A DNA stretch of 64,000 nt from an uncultured bacterium (GCA_963777505.1 CAVZQN010000004.1:1184001-1248000), one strand, 5' to 3'. Shown: positions 18,512-48,681, counted from the first letter of the stretch. Translations and numbers: made by a program. The notes: generated by a model from the sequence alone, not told the origin.

Positions 18512-18527
18512 TTGGACCTTAGTCCAG
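18512..18527. promoter_or_regulatory. Palindromic response-regulator box 1, TTGGACCTTAGTCCAG
   Basis: Upstream of marC-hdeD; one of nine copies. Confidence 0.75.
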
Positions 18528-18586
18528 TGGCTTGGGTGTGACCGATTGTGATTACTATTAATATAGTATTACTTTTTGAGGATGCA

Positions 18587-19786
18587 TTACTTTGCGGTTT
18601 GCTCTTTAGTATTCGGGTCGCGCACAAATCTAACACCGAGGTGATCAGTACCTGTATTTAGTTCACCTTTTCCGCGGGTTCCAACCATGTAGCGCGTGCA
18701 GTATTGATCAGTGCACAAGAAGGAACCGCCGCGATGAACGCGCTTTTTTTCAGTGGGCTCGGATGGATCAAATGACGATTCGGGTCCGGCTGGATTTTTA
18801 GTTACACCACCAACTTTCGCTAACTCTGCATAATAATCAGGACGATACCAGTCGCTGACCCATTCCCAAACATTGCCTCCCACATCGTAAAGTCCATAAC
18901 CGTTCGGAGTAAAAGAAGCTACGGGAGCGATTCCTGCGAAGCCATCGCTGCCAGTGTCTGCTACTGGAAATTTCCCCTGATACGTATTTGCCATGGGTTT
19001 ATTCTGAGCATTCAAATCATCGCCCCATGCATAGAGTTTTCCAGTCAAACCGCCGCGTGCGGCAAACTCCCATTCGGCTTCAGTCGGGAGACGTTTGCCT
19101 GCCCACTTTGCATAAGCAAGAGCATCGTCATATGCAATATGAACGACTGGATATTTCTCCTTACCTTTGATATTGCTTTCGGGTCCTTGCGGATGGCGCC
19201 AGTTTGCGCCGGTCTGATAACGCCACCATTGATAATGATTATTCAATGGGACTGCTTCGATAGAGGCAGAGAACACAATTGAACCAGCTACAAGATTCTC
19301 CGGCGGAGCGTCAGGAAATTCTTCTTTAGTGGGTGTGCGTTCAGCGATGGTTACATAACCTGTCGCTTTGATGAACTTCACGAATTCTTCATTCGTCAAC
19401 TCAGTCGCATCCATCCAGAACCCATCAACATATACCCGATGAACTGGTAATGCATCGCGCGTCAGACCGGGCATATCACACATCGATTCGCTTTCGGCAG
19501 TACTGCCCATTGAAAATTCACCACCCGGTATCCATACCATTCCTTTCGGTGCAGGACCAGGTGCCGATGTTGAATTGCTCTTTGTCGATACGAAAGTAAC
19601 AGAAGGTGATGAAGATGGCTCTGACTTCACCGTAGAAACACGCGCTTGTTCGGGGATCGGAGGCGTCGATTTTCGTAAAACGAAATAGGCCAAAACAGCA
19701 GCCCCGATTAACGCCAACGGTAACCACCAAATTATGTAAGATCTGGTCTGTTGCTTTTCGCGCCTGGCGTGATTTCGTTGTGACAT
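18587..19786 (-). CDS. Formylglycine-generating enzyme family protein, N-terminally membrane-anchored
   Basis: RLPTEAEWE, NVWEW, RGGSFLCTDQYC; N-terminal TM helix and Ser/Pro linker. Confidence 0.9.
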   Translation of the reverse strand: MSQRNHARREKQQTRSYIIWWLPLALIGAAVLAYFVLRKSTPPIPEQARVSTVKSEPSSSPSVTFVSTKSNSTSAPGPAPKGMVWIPGGEFSMGSTAESESMCDMPGLTRDALPVHRVYVDGFWMDATELTNEEFVKFIKATGYVTIAERTPTKEEFPDAPPENLVAGSIVFSASIEAVPLNNHYQWWRYQTGANWRHPQGPESNIKGKEKYPVVHIAYDDALAYAKWAGKRLPTEAEWEFAARGGLTGKLYAWGDDLNAQNKPMANTYQGKFPVADTGSDGFAGIAPVASFTPNGYGLYDVGGNVWEWVSDWYRPDYYAELAKVGGVTKNPAGPESSFDPSEPTEKKRVHRGGSFLCTDQYCTRYMVGTRGKGELNTGTDHLGVRFVRDPNTKEQTAK

Positions 19787-19842
19787 TGTTTTCAGATGTA
19801 TTAACTAAACGACTATCGAGCAGAAATTATGGATCTCAGATA

Positions 19843-19858
19843 TTGGACTTTAGTCCAA
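19843..19858. promoter_or_regulatory. Palindromic box 2, TTGGACTTTAGTCCAA
   Basis: Perfect arms (TATTGGACT-TT-AGTCCAATA) between divergent genes. Confidence 0.85.
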
Positions 19859-19964
19859 TAAACGCCTGAGACGAATTTAGTTTACTATGTACAAGCACCA
19901 CAGGTACATATCCTTCTATCCTCGGTGTATCTGGCCAGTCTTAAAACATTTCATGGAGGCATCA

Positions 19965-20744
19965 ATGCGACAAATTTTAATGCTCACACTTCTTATTTTC
20001 GGAGTAGTTGGTTTTGTTTTTGCCCAAACAGGGGAACGGCTTTCAGACAAGGAAGTTAAAGAGATAATCGACAATGTCGATCATGGGCGTGATCGTTTTG
20101 AAGATGCAATGGAAAACAATTTGAAACATGCAATTTGGCGTGGTCCAAAAGGCGAAGTCGATATTTCAAAAGCCCTTGACGACTTCCAGGAAAATACAAA
20201 AGATTTGGAAGAACGCTTTAAACCGGATTATTCCGCAAGTAGTGAAGTGGGTGTTGTGCTCGAAAAAGCAACCAATATTAGCAATTTCCTATCGAATCAT
20301 CCTGGCACAAAAGGTGCGAGTGAATTTGATCATTTTGCAGTCGACTTGAAAAAGTTAGCGAACGCTTATGGAACGGATTTTCCAGTCCCTGAAGGCGCAT
20401 CATTTCGCAGAATCAATGATGGTGAAGCAGCAAAGGCTGCCGATTTACTAGCAAAGCAAGCGGATCAACTCAAGAAACAAATTGACAAGGACAAGACAAT
20501 TCCAGATGAGCAGCAAGAAATCTACAAAGATGATATTGATCAACTCATCAAGAGTTCGAAGACATTAAAGGACCGTCTTGCAGATTCGGATCCCGCAACG
20601 GCGGAAGCACGTACAGTGGTTGATCAGGCAGCGCAAATCGGTCAGGCATTGGAAGGCGCTCAAGTGGCGGCACCTGTTACGTCAGCATGGAGCTCAATGC
20701 AGGCGTCTTTGAGTAAGATCAAGCAAGCCTTCCAATTGGACTAG
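19965..20744 (+). CDS. Secreted helical hypothetical protein with two internal repeats
   Basis: GGAGG RBS, signal peptide; RLSDKEVK.. and RINDGEAA.. halves look duplicated. Confidence 0.75.
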   Translation: MRQILMLTLLIFGVVGFVFAQTGERLSDKEVKEIIDNVDHGRDRFEDAMENNLKHAIWRGPKGEVDISKALDDFQENTKDLEERFKPDYSASSEVGVVLEKATNISNFLSNHPGTKGASEFDHFAVDLKKLANAYGTDFPVPEGASFRRINDGEAAKAADLLAKQADQLKKQIDKDKTIPDEQQEIYKDDIDQLIKSSKTLKDRLADSDPATAEARTVVDQAAQIGQALEGAQVAAPVTSAWSSMQASLSKIKQAFQLD

Positions 20745-20810: not shown

Positions 20811-20826
20811 TTGCACCAAAGTCCAA
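20811..20826. promoter_or_regulatory. Palindromic box 3, TTGCACCAAAGTCCAA
   Basis: Two mismatches to consensus; flanks ATA/TAT extend the symmetry. Confidence 0.6.
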
Positions 20827-21261
20827 TATTCCATCCGGACTAAAAATGGTATCTTCTTGATGCCCTATTGCGAAGCCAAGCTGTTAGAAAAAGAGAGATA
20901 ATTTCTTTGATATTCTTCATGACCTTTGGAAGTGCGAACATGCATGCACAGCAGACTCAGCCCGCCTTTGGAATTGATCCTAAGGCGGCTGAGCTGTTGC
21001 GCAAAAACAACCAATTTGTTCGGTGATTCAGCCACGGTAACCTCCCCGTTCATCCGCTAGAAGACGAAAGATCAATAACCAGTCTATTTCTTCGTTCGGT
21101 TAGGCTTGCTGTATTTGCATTTGCAAAAATCTATCCTGGCGCACACAGCACATCTAAATCTATGAAAAGGCGGGTGGGTTAGGTATGTTCAGCTTCCGCT
21201 TGTTTTGAGCAAAATAAGATCGAGCAAACTGTGGAGTAGTATTCAGGCGGAAAAATAATAA

Positions 21262-21331: not shown

Positions 21332-22045
21332 TTATTTCTTGAAAATTTTCAGGCCATAGGAAAACGCAAGGAATACGATTCCCAGAATCCCGAATACTGC
21401 GATGGGGCTTCCCGTTTTTGGCAAAGTCGATGGTGCCGGGCTGTCGTCGTCGTCAGACGAAGCTGCCATCGGAGCAGGAGCGGGAGCAGGACTTGGAGCG
21501 GGACTGGGAGCTGCAGCCGGAGCACTTCCAGAAACTCCACCAGGAGTTGTTGTCACAACGGTGCTTTGGTTCTTATGGTAAATAGTAGCTGTCAGATTCA
21601 TTCCCTTCTTAAGATCATAGACAGTCATTTCCTTGCCATCTACGGTAAAGCGGATCCAATCATCAACTACGAATTGTTTATTCGTGCGATCAGCCATCGT
21701 TACGATAAGTGTTGGGGGCTGCACGTGCCAAACTTTCCCCTGTTTGATCTCAGTTGAATAAACAGTTGTAGGTGAAGTGGTCGAAGTAATCGTTCTGGAA
21801 AGAGCGGTCCCCGGCTTCAATTCATGAACAGAAACTTCTTTTCCATCCACATTAAACCGGAAATCTTCGGGTACATCGAAGCTTTTTAATTCGCCCGTTG
21901 AAAATTTGATTACAAGGTGGTTTCCATCTACGGAAACTACTGTGCCTTGTCTGACTTCTGTCGTCACTTGCGCTTGAGCGGGACTCAAGCATACAAGCAT
22001 TCCCGCAAAAAACAGTATCGCAATTGTAAACCCACGCATATACAT
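21332..22045 (-). CDS. LPxTG-anchored surface protein with two beta-rich repeats
   Basis: Signal peptide, two ~60-aa repeats (F.VDGKE..V..LK.G), Pro/Ala linker, LPKTG + TM helix + KIFKK tail. Confidence 0.85.
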   Translation of the reverse strand: MYMRGFTIAILFFAGMLVCLSPAQAQVTTEVRQGTVVSVDGNHLVIKFSTGELKSFDVPEDFRFNVDGKEVSVHELKPGTALSRTITSTTSPTTVYSTEIKQGKVWHVQPPTLIVTMADRTNKQFVVDDWIRFTVDGKEMTVYDLKKGMNLTATIYHKNQSTVVTTTPGGVSGSAPAAAPSPAPSPAPAPAPMAASSDDDDSPAPSTLPKTGSPIAVFGILGIVFLAFSYGLKIFKK

Positions 22046-22051
22046 TACCTC

Positions 22052-22684
22052 CTAAGGATTTTTTGATGTCACGTTAGTTGAATTTTTGGTTAACGAGGCC
22101 TGAATGATGAAGCGCTCTGGTGCGCTCCCTACAAAATAAAACGGATAACAAGTAACAAGTGTGAGAGATGGATTCGGTCTGGGATTGAGAACCCAAACGT
22201 CTTCAGGTTTGACGATATGAATTGCATCAATTGCATAGAGACGTTTTTCGTTGGACGTGACTAGTTCGATCGTATCGCCAAGGTTAATGTCCTTCAGTCC
22301 ACGAAAGAACCCATCTCGATGTCCGGCGATTCCAATATTACCGCTACCGTTGATTTCTGATGTTCCGGGAATACGACCGACGGCGCGATTGAGTGTAATG
22401 TCATCAATTCCTTCGAATACTGACACTTCAAGGTTGATACGATTGATTCGTAGTATCGCCGCCGGAGGGTCAAAATTATTCAGAAGCGATTCTTTATAAG
22501 CCTGGATCCGTTTTGAATCCCAGAGACTAAAATCTGGTGAATCCTCTGTGATTGTTTTGTCCTGAAGATTCTGAGTTTGTGCTTCGACGGCAGCATAATT
22601 CCAGAGGAACCCGTGTAGACGCACAAAGACATAGATTCCAATCGAAGCAAACCCGAGTATTCTGAAGAATTTTTCCAATCTCAT
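22052..22684 (-). CDS. Class D sortase
   Basis: IAGHRDGFF, LTLVTCYPF and downstream Arg (ERFII) give the catalytic triad. Confidence 0.93.
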   Translation of the reverse strand: MRLEKFFRILGFASIGIYVFVRLHGFLWNYAAVEAQTQNLQDKTITEDSPDFSLWDSKRIQAYKESLLNNFDPPAAILRINRINLEVSVFEGIDDITLNRAVGRIPGTSEINGSGNIGIAGHRDGFFRGLKDINLGDTIELVTSNEKRLYAIDAIHIVKPEDVWVLNPRPNPSLTLVTCYPFYFVGSAPERFIIQASLTKNSTNVTSKNP

Positions 22685-22770: not shown

Positions 22771-22786
22771 TTGGACTTTAGTCCAA
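22771..22786. promoter_or_regulatory. Palindromic box 4, TTGGACTTTAGTCCAA
   Basis: Perfect arms; upstream of the sortase, with a minus-strand TACTAT -10-like hexamer 20 nt downstream. Confidence 0.85.
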
Positions 22787-22796: not shown

Positions 22797-23459
22797 TCAA
22801 ATGTTGATTTTTGGTCCGATTTGTAAACGCTCGGCGATTCTTGCAAGCTCAGCCAGCGATTGAACTTCCATTTTTTCCATCACGTGTGCACGATGTACTT
22901 TAATGGTTTTCTCAACCAGACCAAGTTCAGCTGCTATTTGCTTGTTGAGTTCTCCAGAAACAACATGCTCCATAACTTCAAACTCTCTTGGAGTGAGTTT
23001 CGCCAGACGTTGATTGATTACTTCCCATTGTTTTCTTTCATTACGAGTAATTGAATCTTGCTCAATCGCCTTATTTACTGCTTTCAGGAGATCTGAGCCT
23101 GATACAGGCTTGGTAAGAAAGTCGACAGCACCGCCTTTCATTGCACGAACGCTGCTTGGGATATCTCCATGACCTGTTAGAAATATGATGCTCCGTTGAC
23201 AGCCAGTTAGCAGCAGTTGTTCTTGTAATTCCAATCCATTGAGTCCGGGCATTGAAACATCGAGCACTGCACACCCCGGTATTGAGCTGTCATGATTCTG
23301 AAGAAATTCAACGGGAGATGAAAAGCACTTGGTTTCAAAACCTTTAGATCTTAAAAGGCGCGAGAGTGCTTTTTGTACTGAAAGATCATCATCGACCACA
23401 AAAACAACAGGGACGGAACTATTGAAGCTCGTGCGTTGATGTGGGTCATTGTGCTGCAT
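22797..23459 (-). CDS. FixJ/NodW-type response regulator (REC + LuxR HTH)
   Basis: VVDDD, LDVSMPG, FLTGHGD, FLTKP, LTPRE..NKQIAAELGLVEKTIKVHR; likely ATG 23459. Confidence 0.92.
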   Translation of the reverse strand: MQHNDPHQRTSFNSSVPVVFVVDDDLSVQKALSRLLRSKGFETKCFSSPVEFLQNHDSSIPGCAVLDVSMPGLNGLELQEQLLLTGCQRSIIFLTGHGDIPSSVRAMKGGAVDFLTKPVSGSDLLKAVNKAIEQDSITRNERKQWEVINQRLAKLTPREFEVMEHVVSGELNKQIAAELGLVEKTIKVHRAHVMEKMEVQSLAELARIAERLQIGPKINI

Positions 23460-23569: not shown

Positions 23570-23585
23570 TTGGACTAAGGTCCAT
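23570..23585. promoter_or_regulatory. Palindromic box 5, TTGGACTAAGGTCCAT
   Basis: Between the divergent FixJ-like regulator and the receiver/kinase genes (possible autoregulation). Confidence 0.75.
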
Positions 23586-23770
23586 CTTGTCCGACATGAC
23601 ATTTAGAGGAAGAATGAATGGTGACAACGCCACAATTGAAGAATGCAGCGAGCAGGCTCAACATTGTAGGCAGGAGCTTTGACAACGAAAATGAGAGGAT
23701 ATTGTGAATGATTGTAGCTTCAGCGCTGCCCACATCAAGTCAAGTTCTAGATAAACAAGGCAAATATTTT

Positions 23771-24151
23771 ATGATGCCTTTAATTGAAGACACTTTGATC
23801 CATGTGATTGACGACGATCCTTCAGTGCGAAAGGCAATCCGCAGATTACTACAATCAATGGGATACAGGGCCAAGGCATATGCTTCCGCAATGGAATTCC
23901 TAAAAGAAAAGAACGAAATAAGATCGTGCCTCATTCTTGACGTACAACTTGATGGAATGAGTGGGCCTGAACTACAGCAACATCTCATAGATATGGGACT
24001 CAGAATCCCTATCGTTTTCATCACCTCGCATGACGATGAAAGCATTCGCAAACGAATTGAGCAGACAGGCGCTCCGTTTTTGAGAAAGCCTGTTGAAGGA
24101 CATCAACTCCTTGAAGCGATTCAAAGAGCAATGAAATCATTCGCTGAATAG
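23771..24151 (+). CDS. Single-domain response regulator receiver
   Basis: VIDDD, LILDVQL, FITSHD, LRKP; no output domain. Confidence 0.88.
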   Translation: MMPLIEDTLIHVIDDDPSVRKAIRRLLQSMGYRAKAYASAMEFLKEKNEIRSCLILDVQLDGMSGPELQQHLIDMGLRIPIVFITSHDDESIRKRIEQTGAPFLRKPVEGHQLLEAIQRAMKSFAE

Positions 24152-24211: not shown

Positions 24212-26239
24212 TTGAAAGAACGTTCCCCTCTGACCGCATACCGCCCCCTGATTGAAAATATTCTGTGGTTCTGTTTATTCGAAACGGCATTCTATTTTGC
24301 TTATCGATATGGAATGTCGTTCAGCAATACTACCGCTTCTCCTTTCTGGTTCCCGGATGCGGTTCTGCTTTGTGCGCTCATGCGCAGTCATCCGCGAAGA
24401 TGGTGGATTTTTGTTTTCGCGCCACTTCCAATTCGAATCTTCGCAGAAGTCGCTCACAATATTCCTTTATGGTTTTTGCTCGCAACATTCGCGATTGATT
24501 CCGCAAAAGGGGTACTGACAGCTTTCGCTTTGCGCCACGTTAACAAGAATCCCATCCGTTTTGAAACGATACGAGAATATTTATTGTTCTTTTTCTTCGC
24601 AGTTTTAATGATTCCTGCAGCAGCTGCTTTTGGCAGGTGCTGCGAGCTCGACACATGCTTGGTGATGATTATTGGCAAGCATGGGGACGCTGGTTTCTTG
24701 GAAATGTGACGACACAATTGGTTTTGACACCAGCAGTTTTATATTGGGTATTTGGCCATCCTGGGAAGATTCAACTCCCGTCCACGAAGCGTGGTATTGA
24801 GGCCGGGTTATTGATCATCGGGCTTCTCGCGTCGGGCTATTTCGCCTTCCATTCGGAATCTCTTTCCAGCAGATTTTGCTGAGCCGTTATTCTTCGCACC
24901 TGTTCCATTTTTGTTTTGGGCAGCAATCCGGTTTGGAATGTTCGGCGCTTCTGCTGCAATCGTAGCGATCGCTGTTCTAGCCGTTCATGCAGCACTCAAT
25001 GCTCGTGGACCATTTTCGGGGCAGTCGCCGGCAGCAACGGCAGTCGCCTTGCAAAATTTTCTGATCATCAGAGCAGCGCCGCTTTATCTGGTGGCAATCT
25101 TGATAGGGCAAAGGAATGAAGTTGAGCAATCGCTAAGAGAAAGTGAAGGACGTTTTCGGAATGTGGCGAATTCTGCTCCGGTTGTGATTTGGATGACAGG
25201 ACCCGACACGCTTTGCACTTTCGTCAATCAAACTTATCTCAATTTCACCGGCCGTACAGTAGAACGGGAACTGGGAAATGGTTGGACAGAATGTATTCAC
25301 TCCGATGATTTAAAACATTGTCTAGATGTTTATCGCTCCGCCTTTGATTTGCATAACGAATTTGAAATGGAATACCGTGTGCGTCGGAACGATGGTGAGT
25401 ACCGGTGGTTGTTCGCCAAAGGAGTGCCTCGGCGGGCGCTGAATGGAGATTTCTTAGGTTATATCGGCACAGCCATCGATATTACAGATCGCAAGCGGGT
25501 AGAGGAGGCCAATCGTCATCTTGCTCATGCGCAACGTCTTACAATTTTGGGTGAATTTACCGCAATGATTGCTCATGAAGTAAATCAACCATTGGCTGCC
25601 ATCATGAGTAACACGGAAACCATCATGAATTTATTAGACTTTGAACAACCGCCGATGAAAGAAATTCGGGAAATACTTTCAGATATTCGCCAGGATGATC
25701 TTCGTGCAAACGAAACGATACGACGAGTTCGATCGCTGTTACAGAAACGCGAAATGCACATGGAACCATTTGATCTCAATCAAATTACTTCAGATGTGCT
25801 CAGGATCATAACCGCAGATGCAACGCGCAGGCACGTTCAAATTCGAAGAGACTTTGAACAAGGTCTTCCATTGGCTTTCGGGGACCCAGCCTATTTGCAA
25901 CAGGTATTGTTGAATTTGATTTCTAATGGAATCGATGCGATGAAGGATACTTCAGAATCTATCCGACAGCTTACCGTGCAAACGAAACATGATCACAACA
26001 ATACTATCGAAGTATCTGTCACAGATTGTGGGTGCGGTATCCCATCCGAAAAGCTGCCTCAAATTTTTGATTCATTTTTCACAACAAAAGAAGAAGGTAT
26101 GGGACTAGGCCTCTCCATCGCGCGTTCGATTATTGAAGCCCATCATGGACGTATCTGGGCTGAAAACAATTCCAATGGCGGTGCAACATTTCATTTTGCT
26201 GTGAGAATGCTTGATGATTCGAAGAATCTAAAACACTAA
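24212..26239 (+). CDS. MASE1-PAS sensor histidine kinase, FixL/NodV-like (frameshifts near 24635-24645 and 24870)
   Basis: MASE1 FWFPDAV and WAAIRFG; PAS; AHEVNQPL H-box; HATPase GMGLGL; split over three ORFs. Confidence 0.85.
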
Positions 26240-26270: not shown

Positions 26271-27320
26271 TTATGGATTAAAACTAATTCGAACTCCGGT
26301 AGTTAGAAGTAAATCATTTTCCTCGGCACCACTGACAGGATTGCTCAGGTAACGATCGCTGACTGTTAAATGCCAATCAAACGTGTCGTTCATTTTGGTA
26401 ACAATGCCCGCATCAAAAGTCATCCGGAATTCGCCTGTATCACTCAGATTGGGAAAGATTACAAATCTTTCTTTAAACGAAACACGTTCGGAGAGTTGAT
26501 ATGAAAAATCTTCGCCCACGAGGAGTTCAGCTGAGTTTCTGCTTTCATCTACTTCAAAATTTTCATAATTGTAGGATCCGCCGCCAAATATCTGAAACTG
26601 TGAGCGGTCATTCTTAACCAAATACCATCCTAAACCGCCGCCTAATACAAGCCTTAAATCGAGAAATTGAAACTCATCATGTTCCATATCCGTAAACACA
26701 AACGGTGTAAGCTTCTCTGTAATGAAGTACTCATACCTTCCACCCCCACGAATGGCGTTTGCTGTTGTTCTTGATTCACCCGTTGTGCTGTCTTGTGCAT
26801 ACAGTGAAGCCGCATAAAAACTGGTCTTATCGTTTGTGGTTGTTCTTGACGCGGACGCTCCAAGCGCAAAATTGATTGTTTCCGAATTCCCCTGACTTAA
26901 ACTGAGCCCGGCTTCAACAAAACCGCCCCAAAGATCTCCCCATCCGGGATGTTCGTAACGCTCTACTTCGGCAAAATAATTATCTTTGGAACGGATCGCT
27001 GCGACTGTGGCAACTGCAGAAACAACTGTGCCGGCATCAGTAGTTTCTACTGTTATATCTCGCTCTGTAAACGTAATCGTTCCAAACAATGTCTTTCCGT
27101 CAGTCATGGATACATATACAGGTTCTGTGGACGTGATTTGTTGAATGGCATCATGAGAAATAGTAATGTCCCCTGCATATGCAGTCTTGAGAATGAGGGT
27201 CTTACCATCGGATTTTATTATTTGTCCTGTGATCCGGTCTGAATTCTTCATCTGAACTTCATCGGCAGAACAGATGACTGCTGCAAGAAAAATAAAAAGG
27301 AATACGAATTTTGACATCAT
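26271..27320 (-). CDS. DUF481 outer-membrane beta-barrel protein
   Basis: Signal peptide, DRITG N-domain, GLSLSQGNSET, C-terminal GVRISF. Confidence 0.85.
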   Translation of the reverse strand: MMSKFVFLFIFLAAVICSADEVQMKNSDRITGQIIKSDGKTLILKTAYAGDITISHDAIQQITSTEPVYVSMTDGKTLFGTITFTERDITVETTDAGTVVSAVATVAAIRSKDNYFAEVERYEHPGWGDLWGGFVEAGLSLSQGNSETINFALGASASRTTTNDKTSFYAASLYAQDSTTGESRTTANAIRGGGRYEYFITEKLTPFVFTDMEHDEFQFLDLRLVLGGGLGWYLVKNDRSQFQIFGGGSYNYENFEVDESRNSAELLVGEDFSYQLSERVSFKERFVIFPNLSDTGEFRMTFDAGIVTKMNDTFDWHLTVSDRYLSNPVSGAEENDLLLTTGVRISFNP

Positions 27321-27407: not shown

Positions 27408-27423
27408 ATGGGCTAAAGTCCTA
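27408..27423. promoter_or_regulatory. Palindromic box 6, ATGGGCTAAAGTCCTA
   Basis: Three mismatches; between divergent DUF481 and PP2C genes. Confidence 0.6.
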
Positions 27424-28419: not shown

Positions 28420-28421
28420 CG

Positions 28422-36013: not shown

Positions 36014-36029
36014 TACGACTAAAGTCCAA
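36014..36029. promoter_or_regulatory. Palindromic box 8, TACGACTAAAGTCCAA
   Basis: Two mismatches; in a divergent promoter region. Confidence 0.7.
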
Positions 36030-37322: not shown

Positions 37323-37341
37323 AATCAACGGAGAGGGACGA

Positions 37342-38835: not shown

Positions 38836-38852
38836 AATAAATCCTTAATTTC

Positions 38853-40043: not shown

Positions 40044-40077
40044 ACTAGATTATTTAACCTTAGTTGAAGATGTTTTT

Positions 40078-41424
40078 TTAGCTCACTTTATTTACGACTG
40101 GCGGTTCCCACGTGCCGTCGGCGACCTCTTTTTTGGGAGCATAGAGACGCAAGGCCAGCTTAAATTCTGCATTGTTCGGGGCCGGCAACCAATTGCTCTC
40201 TTTATTTTTTCCCGGCGAATCACTCTGGATGTAAATAGTCAGCGATCCATCGTCACCGAACTTCATACCGCTGCGGTCGCCAAGGGCGTAACGGTTGATC
40301 GGATTATCGACTAGATACGCATCCTTGTCGTACATCGTTAGCGACCAGAACGCATTCACCGGTGGGATGTCTTCTTTTTTAAATTGGAGTGTGTACTTGT
40401 TCGCTCCGTTAAATGGCTTGCCATCGCGGTCTTTTTCTCCGAACGGATAAACCGCGTCCTCAGGCAAATTTCCTCCAACTCCATAAAACGTCCAACCCGC
40501 TCGATACGCATATTTTTTTCCATAGCGTCCCATATCAAGTGCGATCTGCCAACCGTTAACAATTTCGCCGCGGTCCGTTTCTTTCATGACTTTAATCCCG
40601 GTAGCTATACCTTGTTCGACCGCGTTGCGCACTTCGGGACTAAAGGCTTCCATGCTGAACTTCTTGCCAGGTCCGATTCCAAGTTTTGCGATCCGCTCCA
40701 TCATCTCCGGATCATCCGGCTCTGGCGGATTCTTCATTAGCAGGCGATTCAAACGATTGAAAAAATCCTCAGGACTCATTTTCAGCACCTGAGTTGGGAC
40801 CGGTGTCTTAGCGTCCACCCCTTCTTTGAGCGGCACGTTTTCGGGAGGCGTATAATCTTTTCCCCATTGTGACAATGGTACAAGTTTGTATTTGTCTTGG
40901 ATTGAGTGAACAGCGTCGTAATCTTTCGGGCCGCCTGTGTAGGTTCTGCCGCCAATTAATGCAAGATTTGTCGGCATCCGCAATTCAGTTACACCTGCAG
41001 GAAGTGTTCCTTTCCAATCCGGACCGACGATTGCGAAGTTGCCGCCTTTACTTCCAACGTTTCGTGATCCGGGCGCATGCGGAACGTTATTCCACGCATC
41101 GATGAGCTGCATAATCCAAAAGCGGTTTCCCATTTCGGGAATTGATAATACAAACGGCTCTTGGGAGAGATCGAAGTTCGCAAGCGAATAAAGCGTGTCA
41201 ACATTGAAGCCAACCACTGCTTTGTTCGAAGCGTCCGGGAATTCGCGATAATGTACGAATTGGTTAATCGGTGCGTGACCTTTCTCCACTTTCGGCACCT
41301 GACACATCGTGTCGATCTGCAATTCGATGTATACCAGAGTCATGCCAAAAATCCATGCGTCCTGTGCGATGGCTTTTGCCTCATCCGGAGAAATCTGCCT
41401 GTTTATTTGCTCGTTTGCGTTCAT
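40078..41424 (-). CDS. DUF1254/DUF1214 protein (no signal peptide)
   Basis: NVDTLYS, PPVNAFWSLTMY, NWLPAP, LRLYAP. Confidence 0.9.
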   Translation of the reverse strand: MNANEQINRQISPDEAKAIAQDAWIFGMTLVYIELQIDTMCQVPKVEKGHAPINQFVHYREFPDASNKAVVGFNVDTLYSLANFDLSQEPFVLSIPEMGNRFWIMQLIDAWNNVPHAPGSRNVGSKGGNFAIVGPDWKGTLPAGVTELRMPTNLALIGGRTYTGGPKDYDAVHSIQDKYKLVPLSQWGKDYTPPENVPLKEGVDAKTPVPTQVLKMSPEDFFNRLNRLLMKNPPEPDDPEMMERIAKLGIGPGKKFSMEAFSPEVRNAVEQGIATGIKVMKETDRGEIVNGWQIALDMGRYGKKYAYRAGWTFYGVGGNLPEDAVYPFGEKDRDGKPFNGANKYTLQFKKEDIPPVNAFWSLTMYDKDAYLVDNPINRYALGDRSGMKFGDDGSLTIYIQSDSPGKNKESNWLPAPNNAEFKLALRLYAPKKEVADGTWEPPVVNKVS

Positions 41425-41500
41425 TATTACTCTCTTTTGATTTCAGACCAAGTTAATTAGAATATTTTTTAGAATTTAAAATTAGAAGAAATTCTATGCA

Positions 41501-42433
41501 CTAATCAGATGGAAATAAATTTTTCCAGTCTTTTTTCATATCGGCAAGCAACCAGCCATAACCGGCAGCTTCATCCAATCCTTTGTCCAATTGTCCGCTT
41601 AATACATGTTGACGATCGTACGCATACTCACGCTCTGCATCCGTGTGATGAACAATCAAACCAAATGAGGGTTTTTTGTCAGGACGGTTTATGGTTGTCC
41701 ACATGAGCATTTCGCGATCACCGTCTGAATTTCCAAAACAAGCAATCGGACGGCGTCCAATAAATTTATTGATTGCCGCCGGCTTTCCTGCCTTATCATC
41801 AAAAAAATCCAGTTCAGGATCACGCATCAAAACTGGAGTGCCTTCGCGCATTTCGAAATGTGTTTTGATTGTAGATCCGATGACTTGTTGCGGCGGAATG
41901 CCATAGACTTCTTCTGCAAAGACGCGCATAAATTCAACGCCGCCTCCGGAAACGATAAAAGTTATGAATCGATTCGCGCGTAGATATTCCAGAACTTCGA
42001 GCATCGGTTGGTAGACTGCTTTCGTAAATGGAATTCCTAACTTCGGATGTTTCGCTGTTTTCAACCAATCGCGAACGATTGCATTAAATTCTTCGGTTGT
42101 CATTCCTGCATGCGTCGCCATTGCAAGTTCTGCAATTCCTTTGATGCCCGTTGCCATTACGGCTTTCATGTCTCCTGCAAGTTTCGATTTGAATGGCTCA
42201 GTTGTTTTCCATTCCGGATGCTGGGGAAGAAGTGCTTTCAGACGATCATCTGCGAAAAACGCTTGAACTGGCACAGGCATTTCGCACCACAATGTTCCAT
42301 CGTTATCGAATACTGCAATACGCTCATTTTCCGGTACATATTCAGGTCCATTTTGAGTTGTAACCCGTTTCACAAAATCTAAGATCGCTTCTTTTGTTTT
42401 ACTGTCGTTCCATGACTGAAGAAACTCCGACAT
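41501..42433 (-). CDS. HAD-family phosphatase, cytoplasmic copy
   Basis: FDNDGTLW, IVSGGG, GKP, GNSDGD; likely ATG 42433. Confidence 0.9.
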   Translation of the reverse strand: MSEFLQSWNDSKTKEAILDFVKRVTTQNGPEYVPENERIAVFDNDGTLWCEMPVPVQAFFADDRLKALLPQHPEWKTTEPFKSKLAGDMKAVMATGIKGIAELAMATHAGMTTEEFNAIVRDWLKTAKHPKLGIPFTKAVYQPMLEVLEYLRANRFITFIVSGGGVEFMRVFAEEVYGIPPQQVIGSTIKTHFEMREGTPVLMRDPELDFFDDKAGKPAAINKFIGRRPIACFGNSDGDREMLMWTTINRPDKKPSFGLIVHHTDAEREYAYDRQHVLSGQLDKGLDEAAGYGWLLADMKKDWKNLFPSD

Positions 42434-42502
42434 AACGATTCCTCGATGAAGGTAAAAACCGGGCGACGAAGTTAGATCGACGCCCGGGATCATGATTAAA
42501 AA

Positions 42503-44089
42503 TTAATGGCCGGCACCGCCCGCAGCTTCGTTCATTTTTGCGAGTGCATCATCGATCGTGAAGCTCGCCGCCTTTTGTGCGGCAGGGAAGTCTTTGAATG
42601 TTTCGGCGAACTTTCCAGCAATCGTTTGTGCTGCGTAGATCATGTAGGCATGATACAAATACCAGTCGTAATAACTGTTCGATGTAACGTCGGCAAACTC
42701 ATACGGATCAGTTCGCAGGTTAAAGATCTTAGGCAGCCGCAAAGGCGTAAACGGCTCCGCCCACACTTGTAAGGTGCCGTGACAACGCTGCTCCATAAAT
42801 ACAATCTTCCAATTGTCATAACGGATCGCGAGCACGTCGCCGTCATCACTGAAATACATGAACAACTTACGCGGGCTTTCTTTTTGTTTGCCAGTTAGAT
42901 ACGGCAGCAGATTGAAACCGTCGATATGATTCTTGAATTTTTTGCCATTGGCAGTGTGTCCTTTTTTTAATTTCTCAACAACATCCGGTTCTCCGGCCAT
43001 CGCTAGAAACGTAGGCAACCAATCGTGATGCTGCACGATTTCGTTTGATACCGTTCCAGCCGGAATTTTGCCAGGCCACCGCACGATCATCGGAATTCGA
43101 AATGCGCCCTCCCAGTTCGTATTCTTTTCACTGCGGAATGGAGTCATACCGCCATCCGGCCAGGTGTTGCGGTGCGGACCGTTATCGGTCGAATACATTA
43201 CGAAGGTATTCTCTGCGATCCCTAGTTCATCCAGGTAGTCAAGCATTTGACCGACATTTTTATCGTGATCGATCATAGTATCGTGATAAGGCGACTGCCA
43301 GCGGCCGGCCTGGCCGAGGCTCTTTGATTTGGTATGCGTAATGCAGTGCATGTGAGTCGTATTGAGCCACACGAAGAAAGGCTTTCCTGCTTTGTCCTGT
43401 CGTTTAATAAAATCTTTTGCTGCGGCAACAAATTCATCATCACAAGTTTCCATCCGTTTCTTTGTGAGTGGACCGGTGTCTTTGATCTTCTGTTTGCCGA
43501 CTTTGCCCCAGCGCGGTTGTACAGTTGGATCGTCTTTGTCAGACGCCCAACATTGCATCACGCCACGTGGTCCGAAATTTTTCCTGAAGTTAGGGAAGTC
43601 TTTTTCGGGAGGATAGTCGTACATTTCGGGTTCCTCCTCCGCATTGAGATGATACAAATTCCCAAAGAACTCATCGAAACCATGCACAGTCGGCAGATAT
43701 TTGTTCATGTCTCCTAGGTGGTTCTTGCCAAACTGGCCTGTGGCGTAACCATGGTTCTTGAGCAATTCGGCAATTGTCACAGTTTCTGCCTGAAGACCGA
43801 CAGGTGCAGCAGGGATACCGACCTTGGACAGACCAGTCCGATATGGACTTTGCCCGGTGATGAATGATGATCGGCCTGCAGTGCAGCTTTGCTCACCGTA
43901 GGAATCCGTAAACATCATTCCTTCTCTTGCAAGACGATCAATGTTGGGTGTTTGATATCCCATTAATCCGTGTGAATAGCAACTGAGATTGGAGATACCA
44001 ATATCATCACCCCAGATGACAAGTATGTTTGGTTTTTGTGTGGATTTACTTGATTGCGTTTTACTTTTAGCGGTTCGACTTTTAGCCAT
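42503..44089 (-). CDS. Arylsulfatase (Cys-type), no signal peptide
   Basis: PNILVIWGDD, SCTAGR, GKNHLGD, TDNG. Confidence 0.93.
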   Translation of the reverse strand: MAKSRTAKSKTQSSKSTQKPNILVIWGDDIGISNLSCYSHGLMGYQTPNIDRLAREGMMFTDSYGEQSCTAGRSSFITGQSPYRTGLSKVGIPAAPVGLQAETVTIAELLKNHGYATGQFGKNHLGDMNKYLPTVHGFDEFFGNLYHLNAEEEPEMYDYPPEKDFPNFRKNFGPRGVMQCWASDKDDPTVQPRWGKVGKQKIKDTGPLTKKRMETCDDEFVAAAKDFIKRQDKAGKPFFVWLNTTHMHCITHTKSKSLGQAGRWQSPYHDTMIDHDKNVGQMLDYLDELGIAENTFVMYSTDNGPHRNTWPDGGMTPFRSEKNTNWEGAFRIPMIVRWPGKIPAGTVSNEIVQHHDWLPTFLAMAGEPDVVEKLKKGHTANGKKFKNHIDGFNLLPYLTGKQKESPRKLFMYFSDDGDVLAIRYDNWKIVFMEQRCHGTLQVWAEPFTPLRLPKIFNLRTDPYEFADVTSNSYYDWYLYHAYMIYAAQTIAGKFAETFKDFPAAQKAASFTIDDALAKMNEAAGGAGH

Positions 44090-44101
44090 AAGATTTTCTC
44101 C

Positions 44102-44566
44102 TTATCCGAATGGACCCATGTGAAAAACCATGCTCATGATCACAATAATGCCGATTATGAGCAGAAGAATTGCTGTCATTAAAGTTAACGATGGAGGAAA
44201 CAAGCTCTCCGCATGAACCAGTCCTTCTTCCTTCATTTTTAATCGTTCATGCCGGAGCCCAACCATAAATTGAATGTGATAAATGATTCCCGTAATTAAC
44301 ATCAAAACTCCAAGCACAACTAACCAGACTCCAAAATGGCGTGCTGGCGCAGCGCTACCTTGCAGCACATTTGATTCCTGTAGTTTTTTAAAGAATTGGA
44401 AAATCGTGAAACCGAAACTGATGAGTGAAAGAGAGGTTCGAATCACTGACATCAATGTACGATCGGCGCTCATCCGCGTACGTTGAAACGACATACCAGT
44501 GCGACGTGAAGACAGTTCTACGGATTTCAGCTCAGGATCAGTTATCTTTCTGGTCTGGCATTCCAT
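44102..44566 (-). CDS. DUF202/YidH membrane protein
   Basis: RTRMSADRTLMSVIRTSLSLISFGF. Confidence 0.88.
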   Translation of the reverse strand: MECQTRKITDPELKSVELSSRRTGMSFQRTRMSADRTLMSVIRTSLSLISFGFTIFQFFKKLQESNVLQGSAAPARHFGVWLVVLGVLMLITGIIYHIQFMVGLRHERLKMKEEGLVHAESLFPPSLTLMTAILLLIIGIIVIMSMVFHMGPFG

Positions 44567-44576
44567 CTCCTACTCA

Positions 44577-44978
44577 TTACTGACGAAAAATTACTGCAAT
44601 TAAGCTCGCGACACCAAGAATTGAAATTAGTGCCGCAACCAATGTTGCGAGAGAGAATTCCTGGTAGATGTATTGTTTCCTAAAATTCCGCATGTATTGC
44701 CAATTCTGGAGAGTGGCAAACAGAAGTGAAACCAACGCGATGGTGATCAAGAACATTGCGAAATATCGTGGTCCGAAAACTCGATGCACTGGTGGGTGTG
44801 TTCCGCTTTCATGTAGATACTGAAAAAATTTATAGATTGTGAATCCGAAACTGATTAATGATGCCGAAGTTCTGACCCACGCCATCAAGGTTCGCTCGTG
44901 AGCGAGCTGCGTACGATCCAATGCAAGTTGATTTGAATCTATTTTTTGCGCCGCAATTTCTTTGGAAGTGTCCGCCAT
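44577..44978 (-). CDS. DUF202/YidH membrane protein
   Basis: RTQLAHERTLMAWVRTS. Confidence 0.9.
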   Translation of the reverse strand: MADTSKEIAAQKIDSNQLALDRTQLAHERTLMAWVRTSASLISFGFTIYKFFQYLHESGTHPPVHRVFGPRYFAMFLITIALVSLLFATLQNWQYMRNFRKQYIYQEFSLATLVAALISILGVASLIAVIFRQ

Positions 44979-45075
44979 CTAATTCGCCTCCACTTGAATT
45001 CGATATTTCAGAAACAAACGCAAGAAGGACCCAGGTTCAATCCCAGATCCTTTTTGCTAGCTATATTCGTTTAAA

Positions 45076-46635
45076 TTAGTTGCTGCTACCGTGAGGGTTT
45101 TCCATTTTCCTTTGAGCTTGCTCAAGAGCTTTATGCATACTCAGCGTGTCGGCGCCTTGAGATGGGGGAAACTCCATCATGCTTTTAAGATGCGCAGCAA
45201 TGATAGGCCCACCAGCTGTGGGCGCCCACAACTTTGAACCGAAGAACTTGCGGCCTATGTAACCCCATTCATGCGATTCAGGATCCATTTTTTCCAACGG
45301 GTCCATGCGTAGATTGAAAATGTATGGAACGCTTGGATAATACTTTTCATTCCACCAGCTTCCCTCTCGCTTCACTCCGATGTGCATCTTCCAGTTGCCA
45401 ACGCGGACTGCCATCAGGTCAGTTTCGTCATAGTAGAAAATTTCTTTTCGAGCTGATTTTTCCGATTTACCAGTCCAGTGATCAATGTTGTTGTAGCCGT
45501 CAAGATGAACCTTGTATGTGGTGTCACCCATCTTGTAACCTTTGAGCAACTTGTCTTTTAAATCTGGTAATCCTGCTGCCGCGGCAAGCGTAGCGAATAG
45601 GTCTTCATGGCTTTGGATTTCGTTCGAGACGCTTCCGGCCGGAATTTGTCCGGGCCAGCGAATTAAGCAAGGCACGCGTAGTCCGCCTTCCCATGTGGTA
45701 CCTTTTTCTCCACGGTATGGTGCATAGCCGCCGTCAGGCCATAGCATGAGCTCATTTCCGTTATCGGTTGTGTAAATGACAATTGTGTTGTCCGCGACGC
45801 CTAGATCTTCCAATTTCTTGAGCAACGCTCCGATCTGTTCATCGTGTTCGATCATCTTTGCACGGACAACATCTTCTTCCGCTCGTCCTTCATCAACTGC
45901 CATCTGAACGTACTTTTTCTGCGGATGCGAGAAGATGTGAATTGCAGTTGTGTTGAACCAACAAAAGAATGGTTTATCACCTTTGCCATTGCGATCCAGC
46001 CAGTTCAACGTATGATCAAGAACTTCGGAATCGAAAGTTTCCATACGTTTGCGAGTTAGCGGTCCGGTGTTTTCGATTTTTTGTTTGCCTACACGTCCGA
46101 ACTTCGGATCTTCCGATGGATCATCCTCATTCGTCGCCCACGCATGAAGTACGCCGCGTGGTCCGAACTTCTTCAAGTACTCAGGATTCTTCTGACCTGG
46201 ATAATCGAGTTCTTCCGGTTCTTCTTCTGCGTTGAGGTGATAGAGATTACCGAACCATTCATCAAATCCATGAACAGTTGGCAGAAATTCGTTACGATCG
46301 CCGAGGTGGTTTTTTCCAAATTGACTCGTCACATATCCTTGCGATTTAAGTACTTCTGCAAGAGTTGGATCACTCTTTTGAATCCCGCGCGTTGATCCAG
46401 GAATGCCGATCGTGGTCATTCCTGTGCGGACGGGAAATTGGCCCATGATAAATGCTGCACGTCCGGCAGTGCAGCTTGGTTGTGCGTAATGATCGGTGAA
46501 CAGGATACCTTCCTTGCCGACTTTGTCGATATTGGGAGTTTTACCCATCATCCCATGCGTATAAAGACCGACATTCCACGTACCAATGTCATCGCCAAAG
46601 ATTACGAGGATGTTCGGTTTGTCTGTTTTTGCCAT
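45076..46635 (-). CDS. Arylsulfatase (Cys-type), no signal peptide
   Basis: PNILVIFGDD, SCTAGR, GKNHLGD, TDNG. Confidence 0.93.
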   Translation of the reverse strand: MAKTDKPNILVIFGDDIGTWNVGLYTHGMMGKTPNIDKVGKEGILFTDHYAQPSCTAGRAAFIMGQFPVRTGMTTIGIPGSTRGIQKSDPTLAEVLKSQGYVTSQFGKNHLGDRNEFLPTVHGFDEWFGNLYHLNAEEEPEELDYPGQKNPEYLKKFGPRGVLHAWATNEDDPSEDPKFGRVGKQKIENTGPLTRKRMETFDSEVLDHTLNWLDRNGKGDKPFFCWFNTTAIHIFSHPQKKYVQMAVDEGRAEEDVVRAKMIEHDEQIGALLKKLEDLGVADNTIVIYTTDNGNELMLWPDGGYAPYRGEKGTTWEGGLRVPCLIRWPGQIPAGSVSNEIQSHEDLFATLAAAAGLPDLKDKLLKGYKMGDTTYKVHLDGYNNIDHWTGKSEKSARKEIFYYDETDLMAVRVGNWKMHIGVKREGSWWNEKYYPSVPYIFNLRMDPLEKMDPESHEWGYIGRKFFGSKLWAPTAGGPIIAAHLKSMMEFPPSQGADTLSMHKALEQAQRKMENPHGSSN

Positions 46636-46710
46636 AAATTTTGACTCCTTATGCCAGATGTTTTGGCTCTTTCTGAATTATTTGTGGCGTTCTTTCATAG
46701 AATGCCTTTA

Positions 46711-47688
46711 TCATTTTTGTTTTGGACGAACGATGCAACGGATTCCAAGATGACATGTTGAAGTATCAATTGGTTGAGCCATGCGTGCGGCAGGCCGATA
46801 ACGCAAACAATAATTTGGTGCGCATAAATAGGAACCCCCTTTCATTACTTTGCGTGGGATTTTCACATTCGGTGTTCGCGGATCATAGCTCTTTTCGGGA
46901 TCACCAACTCTCGGATTGATTGCACCACAACAGGATTTAACGATCTGGTTATGTTCCTGATACCAATCCGTAGTCCATTCCCAAACATTTCCACCCATGT
47001 CATACAATCCGTATCCATTGGGTGGAAATGAACCAACTGGTGCAGTCCATTCGTAGCCATCCGATAAAAGATTTTCGTTTGGAAATTCACCTTGCCAGGT
47101 GTTTGCCATCATCTGGCCATTGGGAGAAGAATCATCGCCCCAGGTGTAAGTTGCACCTTCCAATCCACCGCGCGCAGCAAATTCCCACTCCGCTTCAGTC
47201 GGCAATTCCTTGCCTGCCCACTTTGCATATGCAATAGCATCGCTGAATGCAACGTGAACTACCGGATGATTCCCGAGTCCTTCAATCGAACTTTCGGGAC
47301 CGCGCGGATGACGCCAATCTGCACCCGGTATGTAAGTCCACCAATTGTATGGATTGCTTAAATCCACACGATGACTCGGTTTTTGAAATACAACGGACGC
47401 AGGTACCAGCATTTCTGGTAATGCACCCGGATAATCTTCAGCTTTTGGTGGACGCTCCGCAGATGTGACGCGACCGGTTTTTTCAATGAACAGGCTAAAT
47501 TGATCGTTGGTAATTGTGTGTTGGTCCATCCAGAATCCATCTACAACCACTTCATGAACCGGTGCTTCTTCGCGATAGTGATCATCCGAACCCATTTGAA
47601 ACTTGCCGCCAGGAATCCAGATCATGCCTTCAAATGGCGGCGCGCCTGCAACCTCCGTATCGATCTGTTTTTTTGAATGTTGCGTCAT
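46711..47688 (-). CDS. Formylglycine-generating enzyme, cytoplasmic
   Basis: LPTEAEWE, NVWEW, KGGSYLCAPNYC. Confidence 0.92.
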   Translation of the reverse strand: MTQHSKKQIDTEVAGAPPFEGMIWIPGGKFQMGSDDHYREEAPVHEVVVDGFWMDQHTITNDQFSLFIEKTGRVTSAERPPKAEDYPGALPEMLVPASVVFQKPSHRVDLSNPYNWWTYIPGADWRHPRGPESSIEGLGNHPVVHVAFSDAIAYAKWAGKELPTEAEWEFAARGGLEGATYTWGDDSSPNGQMMANTWQGEFPNENLLSDGYEWTAPVGSFPPNGYGLYDMGGNVWEWTTDWYQEHNQIVKSCCGAINPRVGDPEKSYDPRTPNVKIPRKVMKGGSYLCAPNYCLRYRPAARMAQPIDTSTCHLGIRCIVRPKQK

Positions 47689-48575
47689 TACTTTGAAATA
47701 ACTGGTTGGTTCGCAAGCTGTGATTCTTCTTCGTCTCGAAACGCAAATTTTGTAACCAGTGAAAATAAGAAGTTCATTGGAATCGAAATTCCGCTGAAAG
47801 CAAGAATGGGAACGAATACATTTGTCCCGGAGAAATCATGAATCGCAATCGGCAAGCAAACACCGACATTCCGCAAACTTGTCGCGATTGCCATCGTTTT
47901 CTTATCGCGCACTTCTTTGCCACCCAGAATCCACCCGATTGTCCAGGAAATAATTACGAGAAGTGCAATGAAAGCCACTCCATTGATTCCCATTGATTTC
48001 ATCGCCGGTTTTTTCGCGCCGGATGAAAGAAAAGTTACGAGAACAAAGAGAACAATCGATAACGTTCCAATGAATTTGGCAAGCTTTTCAGCGCGGTCAG
48101 TCTGCATGTGTTGAGCCAACCATTTTCCCAATAAGATGGGTAACGGAATTAACATCAGTAACAAAAACATCAACCTTAAAATGCGGACGATCTTTTGGTC
48201 AGCACCAAGAAAAAACTGTGCGAAAAGGGGAGTAAAAATGATTCCAACAACAGCAAGTAAAATCAAAAGCGCAACGGCTAAATGAACGTTGCCTTTTGAT
48301 ACCCGTGCGAAATTTAAAGCGAATAAACCGCCAGGAGCAAAAGCTAGAAGCAACAGCCCGGTTTTAATATCTGGAGATAAGGTGAAGACCTTCAACAGAA
48401 TCAAACAAACGACCGGAACTAAAACAAGGTTAGCGAACAGCGCATTAAAAATGAATTTCGGACTTTTTAGTAGTGTGATGATTTCGTTGGGTTTTGTTTC
48501 AAGGCCAACCGAAAACATGTAGACAATCAGAAAGAGGTAAGATAAAACCTGAATGTATGTAGGGAGTATTTCCAT
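47688..48575 (-). CDS. Bile acid:sodium symporter (BASS) family transporter
   Basis: MFSVGL, ANLVLVP, APGG, LRNVG; multi-TM. Confidence 0.85.
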   Translation of the reverse strand: MEILPTYIQVLSYLFLIVYMFSVGLETKPNEIITLLKSPKFIFNALFANLVLVPVVCLILLKVFTLSPDIKTGLLLLAFAPGGLFALNFARVSKGNVHLAVALLILLAVVGIIFTPLFAQFFLGADQKIVRILRLMFLLLMLIPLPILLGKWLAQHMQTDRAEKLAKFIGTLSIVLFVLVTFLSSGAKKPAMKSMGINGVAFIALLVIISWTIGWILGGKEVRDKKTMAIATSLRNVGVCLPIAIHDFSGTNVFVPILAFSGISIPMNFLFSLVTKFAFRDEEESQLANQPVISK

Positions 48576-48665
48576 TGGGAATCCATCCCCCTACACCGTC
48601 CCGCGAGGCTCAACACGCACAAAAAGCCTCACATTCAATTTATTAATGGTTCGATAAAACTACCA

Positions 48666-48681
48666 TTGGACTTTAGTCCAT
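48666..48681. promoter_or_regulatory. Palindromic box 9, TTGGACTTTAGTCCAT
   Basis: Heads the BASS-FGE-sulfatase gene run. Confidence 0.82.

Follow-up and report, generated by a model that had tools for sequence, protein, structure and literature searches.

For the majority of two-component regulators in genome databases, no DNA target is known. The described systems closest to the one considered here are DosR/DevR of Mycobacterium tuberculosis, OsdR of Streptomyces coelicolor and FixJ. The consensus probe for DosR is given as TTGGGGACTAAAGTCCCTAA, the residues named as contacting DNA are K179, K182 and N183, and the primers printed in the same source translate to AEKTVKNYVSRL (PMC5999986). 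The promoter-proximal site of DevR is described as overlapping the -35 element (PMC3029386), OsdR as having many sites around its own gene (PMC5069765), and the FixJ site is quoted as TAAGTAATTTCCCTTA (PMC4999443). The present analysis concerns 64,000 nucleotides of DNA from an uncultured bacterium (GCA_963777505.1, CAVZQN010000004.1:1184001-1248000; hereafter the window, numbered from its first letter), in which eight copies of a 16-bp palindrome accompany the gene for a FixJ/StyR-type response regulator, designated RR1 (22797-23459, minus strand). The eight palindromes are probably operators of RR1, which would form with them a self-regulated two-component regulon with a DosR-like box at about -43.5.

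Palindrome copies and their spacing to promoter elements

A search of the window for TTGGACTWWAGTCCAA with up to three mismatches returned eight matches, at 18512, 19843, 20811, 22771, 23570, 27408, 36014 and 48666 (sites 1 to 8), as opposed to a mean of 1.01 and at most 4 in 100 dinucleotide-preserving shuffles, none of which reached eight. Similarly, seven matches to the core GGACTNNAGTCC with at most one mismatch were found against 0.90 expected, a number attained in none of 100 shuffles. The exact core GGACTWWAGTCC is present in three of the eight sites and is one base off in four more. The 20-bp consensus is approximately tATTGGACTwwAGTCCAATa (i.e., half-sites TTGGACT and AGTCCAA with 2-nt spacing); similarity among the window copies ends beyond about 20 bp, where the flanks differ. 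A weight matrix derived from the eight sites, and therefore circular with respect to them, scored them at 20.0 to 29.9 bits, the next best scores in the 64 kb being 9.5 (52775) and 9.0 (30813). Neither the mismatch search nor the matrix scan found a copy in the window beyond 18.5-48.7 kb, in agreement with a preliminary description of this DNA.

That description had counted nine copies. Eight were confirmed, enriched and intergenic, but the ninth, a weak site at 30813-30828 upstream of 30914-31546 and katE, has four mismatches, scores 9.0 bits, which is no better than background, and has no TAnnnT hexamer at offsets 18-24. Since katE had been assigned through the 30813 site only, with its background-level score and without the hexamer spacing, it was rejected as a target. 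By the gene calls all eight of the remaining sites are intergenic, the intergenic share of 18000-49000 being 8.0%, and seven of them precede the start of a gene of at least 149 amino acids by 28-142 nt. The site at 20811 precedes only an open reading frame (ORF) of 52 amino acids and heads no operon.

Flanks were read outward from every site in both directions, 16 flanks in all. TAnnnT begins 23 or 24 nt beyond the end of the site in nine of these, whereas about one occurrence would be expected at two offsets, given a rate of approximately 0.034 per position over offsets 0-53 of the same flanks (summed by hand). A -10-like hexamer 19-24 nt from several copies had been noted previously, and the present count both bears this out and sharpens it. 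Directly after the site, the hexamer is TTGACA-like at the sortase promoter only and poor otherwise. With an assumed spacer of 17 nt, the palindrome would occupy about -51 to -36 (centre near -43.5) and abut the -35 position, a placement derived from the hexamer spacing. The arrangement is taken to be of the activator type because the palindrome abuts a weak -35 element and the spacing to TAnnnT is fixed; thus, the eight sites look like promoter-linked activator operators.

RR1 and its association with the motif in other genomes

RR1 is a protein of 220 amino acids that consists of a receiver (Response_reg, 4.7e-24) and a C-terminal GerE/LuxR-type helix-turn-helix (GerE, 1.4e-20), an order of domains that fits the FixJ/NarL superfamily. 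This short form matches the database record and is the form to which relatives align; a longer ORF would take in site 5. Among NCBIfam models, FixJ ranked first (193.9 bits, cut-off 255) and TtrR was also among the top models, while comparison with PDB entries gave StyR (1yio; 3.4e-52, 180 bits), Bradyrhizobium FixJ (5xso; 3e-39, 138 bits) and DevR (3c3w; 4.5e-10). The recognition helix of RR1 is VEKTIKVHR. At least 8000 candidate relatives were scored, all with E <= 1e-20, and when the helix was read in the best 120 of these, EKT[IV]K[VI]HR was present in 116. Translation also reproduced the helices reported in the preliminary description, EKTIKVH for RR1 and ARTVETY for a second regulator, RR2 (37342-37986), and site 5, assigned there to the promoter of RR1 itself, does lie between the RR1 start (23459) and a divergent receiver-only gene.

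An exact scan of genome contigs for the 16-mer returned at least 124 loci from at least 91 assemblies. At least 80 loci, from 64 assemblies (counted by hand), had 2-kb flanks that were searched by tblastn with 34 window proteins; loci recovered from other genomes and plasmids are labelled with L-numbers. Relatives of RR1, 49-54% identical and with domains confirmed by Pfam, were detected in four loci from three assemblies among the 64 listed. The order in L051/L052 (Blastocatellia) is site, kinase, regulator, site, lone receiver, which is the arrangement of the window. In L054 (Syntrophaceae), kinase, regulator and lone receiver genes are followed by two overlapping sites and a sigma factor gene, and in L063/L064 (Planctomycetaceae SH248) the order is kinase, regulator, site, phosphoketolase and, about 6.6 kb further on, acetate kinase, site, HlyD-AcrB. 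The end of the regulator gene or the start of its operon is within a few hundred bases of a site in L051/L052, L054 and L063, and alignment showed the helix EKT[IV]KVHR in all three RR1 relatives beside the motif, with an identity to RR1 of 50-54% over the aligned sequences. The two copies in L054 (1986-2016; 23.2 and 28.5 bits) start 15 bp apart, overlap by one base and are just upstream of the sigma-70-family gene.

Relatives of other window genes were also found beside the motif. Thus, L040 carries a fusion of a sodium:dicarboxylate symporter (SDF) and a solute-binding domain that is 48% identical to that of the window, and L010 has a relative of 38853-40043 on the downstream side of the motif. 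When a plasmid collection was queried with 31 bases from around site 2, TATTGGACTTTGGTCCAATA was retrieved from replicons of Paraburkholderia phymatum and P. largidicola (L131, L132), where the motif occupies the divergent region between nhaA and a sulfatase-HAD hydrolase-radical SAM/SPASM operon whose HAD protein is 49-58% identical to the two HAD proteins of the window. A Usp-family gene was noted near one site only, in L132.

For the converse comparison, 13 plasmid loci were fetched by homology to RR1 and 8-12 kb on each side were scanned with the matrix. Sites of at least 15 bits were present in four of five loci with an EKT.K helix and in none of eight with other helices (Fisher, by hand, approximately 0.007, a value that is indicative only as the loci were hand-picked). 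The positive loci were L133 from Cupriavidus sp. EM10 (17.2, 16.2, 16.1 and 11.9 bits), L134 from P. phenoliruptrix pSYM (25.5, 15.7 and 26.8 bits), L135 from Paraburkholderia sp. PREW-6R (28.2 and 14.5 bits) and L139 from Eleftheria terrae (17.9 and 15.6 bits, both upstream of the regulator's own gene). The order in L135, i.e., PAS kinase, regulator, site, lone receiver, site, Ysc84-like gene, HlyD, RND pump, is again the arrangement seen in L052 and the window. None of the eight loci with EVT, EIT or ERT helices had a site of at least 15 bits, the best being one of 14.1 bits with a different core in L138. In agreement with this, no motif was seen in the 8-12 kb to either side of the genes for RR1 relatives from rhizobia, Microvirga, Cronobacter and Cupriavidus necator, an absence attributed to their different recognition helix. 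The L138 element is a palindrome, TTGGATTTAATTCCAA, at 22533-22552 of the C. necator N-1 pBB1 locus; its outer bases match the window motif while its core differs, and, as the regulator there has the Val-type helix EVTIKVHR, it may give a clue to the operator read by relatives with such a helix. A pair of DUF3300 and DUF2950 genes was also noted near sites in L133 (7527-10603) and L134 (20958-23298) and is a possible conserved target across these two Burkholderiaceae loci.

The type of regulator and the motif thus recur together in Acidobacteriota, Desulfobacterota, Planctomycetota and Betaproteobacteria, and this island is not alone in having the pairing. RR1, proposed as the binder in the preliminary description, is the best candidate because relatives with the same helix sit beside the motif and relatives with other helices do not; two lines of comparative evidence, independent of one another, support this assignment. 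Two other elements of that description fared less well. The regulon had been called self-contained within about 30 kb, for which a 64-kb window is too narrow a basis, and it had been called MASE1-kinase-driven. The kinase in question, a candidate partner of RR1 with MASE1, PAS, HisKA and HATPase domains split over two ORFs (24212-26239, plus), has a frame broken by three stops. Its neighbours fit a wider pattern, as a kinase, a FixJ-type regulator and a lone receiver are also encoded together in L052, L054, L135, L125, L126 and L130.

Several observations weigh against the assignment of the sites to RR1. The out-of-frame stretch in the candidate kinase, with its three stops, covers residues 166-198. 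The three motif-first cases come from at least 124 listed matches, the 13 plasmid loci were chosen by hand from match lists and are not a random sample, and the matrix was built from the window sites, whereas several matches elsewhere carry a GGACC..GGTCC variant. L128, a Cupriavidus pauculus plasmid locus whose regulator has an EKT helix, had no site of at least 9 bits within 10 kb on either side. The Paraburkholderia sulfatase site had no response regulator within 12 kb on either side, and the regulon is therefore not always local. In the window itself, sites 1, 3, 4 and 8 are also 10-67 nt past a stop codon. Finally, most of the listed matches to the 16-mer elsewhere are hairpins or repeats resembling repetitive extragenic palindromes (REP) beside housekeeping genes; when 77 flanking ORFs from 39 loci were examined with Pfam, they showed no common theme, were of housekeeping or unrelated function and included neither a response regulator nor a LuxR-type protein.

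The last two observations would fit palindromes that act as RNA or DNA hairpins (REP-like repeats, terminators or stability elements) rather than as operators, and the 16-mer can be folded into a 6-bp stem with a 4-nt loop. In other taxa it forms the tip of longer, conserved, genome-specific inverted repeats, often between convergent genes or paired 29-31 bp apart, in Chthoniobacter (L004, L007, L008, L020, L021, L025, L046, L069, L080-L083, L090, L119-L121), Akkermansia (L009, L035, L044, L049, L084, L091, L096), Acutalibacteraceae and relatives (L013, L014, L023, L027, L031, L057, L058, L061, L075, L079, L122), Novipirellula/Rhodopirellula (Pirellulaceae; L030, L053, L062, L073, L094, L115) and Campylobacterota. 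The exact 16-mer is the shared apex of many independent repeat families in several unrelated phyla. The window copies differ from such repeats in being without similarity beyond about 20 bp, in lying at four sites in divergent promoter regions, where no transcript ends, and in pairing that is often broken by mismatches (e.g., sites 6 and 7); no T-run follows them and none appeared in a terminator scan. Moreover, the spacing to -10-like hexamers that is fixed in the window and at regulator-linked loci was seen, at offsets 22-24, in 7 of 24 flanks of 12 loci classed as operator-like but in 2 of 134 flanks at 67 non-operator-like sites elsewhere. Since the spacing is absent at repeat-type sites, the system is defined by sequence plus context and not by sequence alone, and an origin of the window copies as hairpins is highly improbable.

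If the palindromes are operators, a protein other than RR1 might bind them. RR2, whose gene is paired with that of a HisKA_3 kinase (36117-37322), would be the binder if the FixJ-type gene were merely one target among others. Thus, site 7 is 87 nt upstream of this kinase-regulator operon with TAnnnT at offset 23, and L026 (Binatia) has a perfect 16-mer, again with TAnnnT at offset 23, just upstream of genes for a PAS-HisKA_3 kinase and for a regulator that shares 37% identity with RR2 and whose helix VRTVSTYR resembles the ARTVETYK of RR2; both facts count against RR1. DosR, moreover, pairs with kinases of the HisKA_3 type (GAF-HisKA_3). On the other hand, RR2 has Arg and Glu where DosR has two DNA-contacting lysines, its best NCBIfam models are of the MctR and UvrY/GacA types, and tblastn found no RR2-like gene beside the motif in L051/L052, L054 or L063/L064 (L133-L135 and L139 were outside this search). 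With one outside case for RR2 against seven for the FixJ type, RR2 is quite unlikely to be the binder. A regulator encoded outside the window, with RR1 a bystander, is also unlikely. In favour of such a regulator, the TetR-family repressor FadR of Thermus thermophilus binds a 15-mer, TTGGACTTAGTCCAA, with nearly the same half-sites and sub-nanomolar affinity (PMC5597230), the window 16-mer lies beside a TetR-type gene in L015, and the Paraburkholderia sulfatase site, as noted above, has no response regulator nearby. The half-sites are, however, 2 nt apart in the window and 1 nt apart in the FadR 15-mer; the FadR sites that are listed fall at -5 to -17 (PMC5597230), as opposed to about -43.5, upstream of -35, in the window; and no TetR-type domain was detected in the 67 window ORFs scanned. 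An outside binder would also leave the helix-specific co-occurrence with FixJ-type regulators (four of five as opposed to none of eight loci) without explanation.

Sites and candidate target genes in the window

Sites 4 and 5 flank the RR1 gene. Site 5 (23570-23585; TTGGACTAAGGTCCAT, 22.3 bits) is in the divergent region between RR1 (start 23459, minus) and the receiver-only response regulator gene (23708-24151, plus), with TAAAAT at offset 18 towards RR1. Between site 5 and the RR1 start codon, at 23519-23491, there is also a near-consensus promoter, TTGACA-17-TAGAAT (11 of 12 matches), from which the RR1 gene may have a constitutive promoter besides the motif-linked one. Site 4 (22771-22786; 29.9 bits), a perfect copy, is 10 nt past the RR1 stop; a sortase gene (start 22684, minus) begins 86 nt downstream of the site, and TTTACA-17-TATCGT follows the site immediately. 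The sortase gene, identified by its domain match, is followed by a gene for a likely substrate (21332-22684, minus), a putatively secreted protein of 237 amino acids with a C-terminal LPKTG, hydrophobic segment and basic tail (weak Gram_pos_anchor match, E = 0.0042); the two look like a dedicated sortase-substrate pair.

Further towards the start of the window, site 1 (18512-18527; TTGGACCTTAGTCCAG, 23.8 bits) is 142 nt upstream of the start of a marC-family transporter gene (18369, minus), with TACTTT at offset 23 in that direction, and 60 nt past the stop of FGE1. The candidate targets of this site are the marC-family gene and a gene for a DUF308/HdeD-like membrane protein (16995-18369, minus). 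Site 2 (19843-19858; 29.9 bits), a perfect TTGGACTTTAGTCCAA, is in the divergent region between FGE1, a member of the formylglycine-generating-enzyme (FGE) family (18587-19786, minus; FGE-sulfatase, 1.6e-74), and a gene whose secreted product belongs to no known family (19887-20744, plus), and has TAnnnT at offsets 13 and 19 only. Site 3 (20811-20826; TTGCACCAAAGTCCAA, 24.5 bits) lies past the stop of 19887-20744, with TATCTT at offset 23 on the plus strand, and the only ORF downstream is the 52-amino-acid one at 20868-21026 (plus).

Site 6 (27408-27423; ATGGGCTAAAGTCCTA, 20.0 bits) is in the divergent region between a gene for a DUF481 outer-membrane-type protein (26271-27320, minus) and a PP2C phosphatase gene that is followed by the SDF/solute-binding fusion gene (27475-30612, plus; the fusion gene is frame-shifted near 28711-28847), and TAnnnT is found at offset 24 both ways. 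Site 7 (36014-36029; TACGACTAAAGTCCAA, 21.6 bits) has TAnnnT at offset 23 both ways and separates 35529-35978, one of two minus-strand genes without a Pfam match (34647-35978), from the genes for the HisKA_3 kinase and RR2, a NarL/GacA-like regulator (36117-37986, plus). Site 8 (48666-48681; TTGGACTTTAGTCCAT, 23.5 bits), with TAAATT at offset 23, is 90 nt upstream of a gene for a BASS (bile-acid:sodium symporter)/SBF transporter that heads a run of ten genes (38011-48575, minus), in the order BASS, FGE2, sulfatase, two DUF202, second sulfatase, HAD hydrolase, DUF1254/DUF1214 and two of no known family. From strand and spacing, this run is inferred to be one transcript.

A second module of lone receiver and MASE1-PAS kinase genes, adjoining a PPK2 gene, is found outside the motif span at 50781-53170; the matrix scan detected no strong site at this module, the best nearby, of 9.5 bits at 52775, being inside the kinase frame. 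Both MASE1 kinase genes belong to a set of five frame-disrupted genes (969-3039, 3081-4464, 24212-26239, 28422-30612 and 51184-53170), the other three encoding two sulfatases and the SDF/solute-binding fusion. In every case the gene is broken up into ORFs that overlap or adjoin one another; the five, some of whose junctions have short runs of T or A nearby, are either pseudogenes or the result of indel errors in the assembly. An ArsR-type regulator gene in tandem with an AHSA1/SRPBCC-family gene was also noted twice, at 54506-55331 and 58131-58956, about 3.6 kb apart.

In the mechanism that we infer, which comprises binding by RR1, activation rather than repression, a partner kinase and a signal, a dimer of phosphorylated RR1 would bind the half-sites TTGGACT and AGTCCAA and, at most targets, would cover about -51 to -36, abutting the weak -35 element at the place where an activator touches RNA polymerase. 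RR1 would thereby switch on its own gene, the neighbouring receiver and kinase genes, the second two-component pair and about nine transcription units, whose predicted products are sulfatases with the enzymes that mature them, transporters, proteins of the outer membrane, surface proteins anchored by sortase and the PP2C phosphatase. The targets that recur between loci (sulfatase-HAD operons, RND pumps, cation/proton antiporters and outer-membrane proteins) allow the speculation of an envelope or ion-stress theme.

A broader reading, for which belief and doubt are about evenly balanced, is that FixJ/StyR-type regulators with the EKT[IV]K[VI]HR helix form a large uncharacterised class across phyla that reads a DosR-type box, with a specificity that would either have arisen independently of the actinobacterial dormancy regulators or derive from deep common descent with them. 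The first lysine of the helix would then be the switch that separates this class from its StyR and FixJ relatives, and its members, acting from a site at -43.5, would govern local islands of genes for the envelope, efflux, ion transport and sulfatases, among them the regulator's own gene and that of the lone-receiver partner. For this large branch, the analysis provides a testable operator sequence, a promoter position and a candidate specificity residue, together with a first list of the recurring candidate targets named above. If the reading is correct, the DosR-type box is not limited to actinobacterial orthologues of DosR, which bears on how LuxR-type helices encode specificity. As the same pairing is present in cultivable Paraburkholderia and Cupriavidus, a test of the prediction does not require the source organism to be cultured.

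Comparison with described regulators and operators

No description of this pairing of regulator and motif was found in the open-access literature, in which literal motif strings led to DosR, to Thermus FadR and to chance matches in primers. By sequence and order of domains RR1 is closest to FixJ and StyR, and the trio of kinase, regulator and lone receiver is found in rhizobial relatives as well. However, RR1 falls short of the FixJ model cut-off (193.9 as opposed to 255 bits), and the helices differ, being EKTIKVHR (Lys) in RR1, EVTVKVHR (Val) in StyR and PRTIEVYR (Arg) in FixJ. The FixJ operator quoted as TAAGTAATTTCCCTTA (PMC4999443) is unrelated to the window motif, and the loci of relatives with Val, Ile or Arg in this helix were without it (none of eight). 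The half-sites of T. thermophilus FadR, as given for its 15-mer (PMC5597230), are nearly identical to those of the window but one base closer together, and FadR differs further in being a TetR-family repressor, a family with no gene in the window, and in its listed sites at -5 to -17.

Compared with DosR/DevR, RR1 is no orthologue, as its matches to StyR (3.4e-52) and FixJ (3e-39) far exceed that to DevR (4.5e-10). The position flanking the core is T/A in the window sites and G/C in the DosR box, and the kinases near RR1-type regulators are of the HisKA type with MASE1 or PAS domains and not of the HisKA_3 type, the HisKA_3 kinase of the window being paired with RR2. The candidate targets here, i.e., sulfatases, transporters and envelope proteins, also set the system apart from that of DosR. 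On the other hand, both systems combine a response regulator with a LuxR-type helix-turn-helix and a palindrome of 16-20 bp, binding of which by RR1 is predicted, and the window palindrome shares its central 12 bp, GGACTWWAGTCC, base for base with the core of the DosR consensus probe (PMC5999986), so that the match to the DosR/DevR box core claimed in the preliminary description is correct. In a short stretch aligned by eye to the contact residues named for DosR (PMC5999986), RR1 keeps both lysines (K179 and K182) and has Val in place of N183. From their TAnnnT spacing, the window sites would abut or overlap -35, the element that the promoter-proximal site of DevR is described as overlapping (PMC3029386). 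Similarly, as described for OsdR (PMC5069765), the sites cluster around the regulator gene, which is itself a predicted target.

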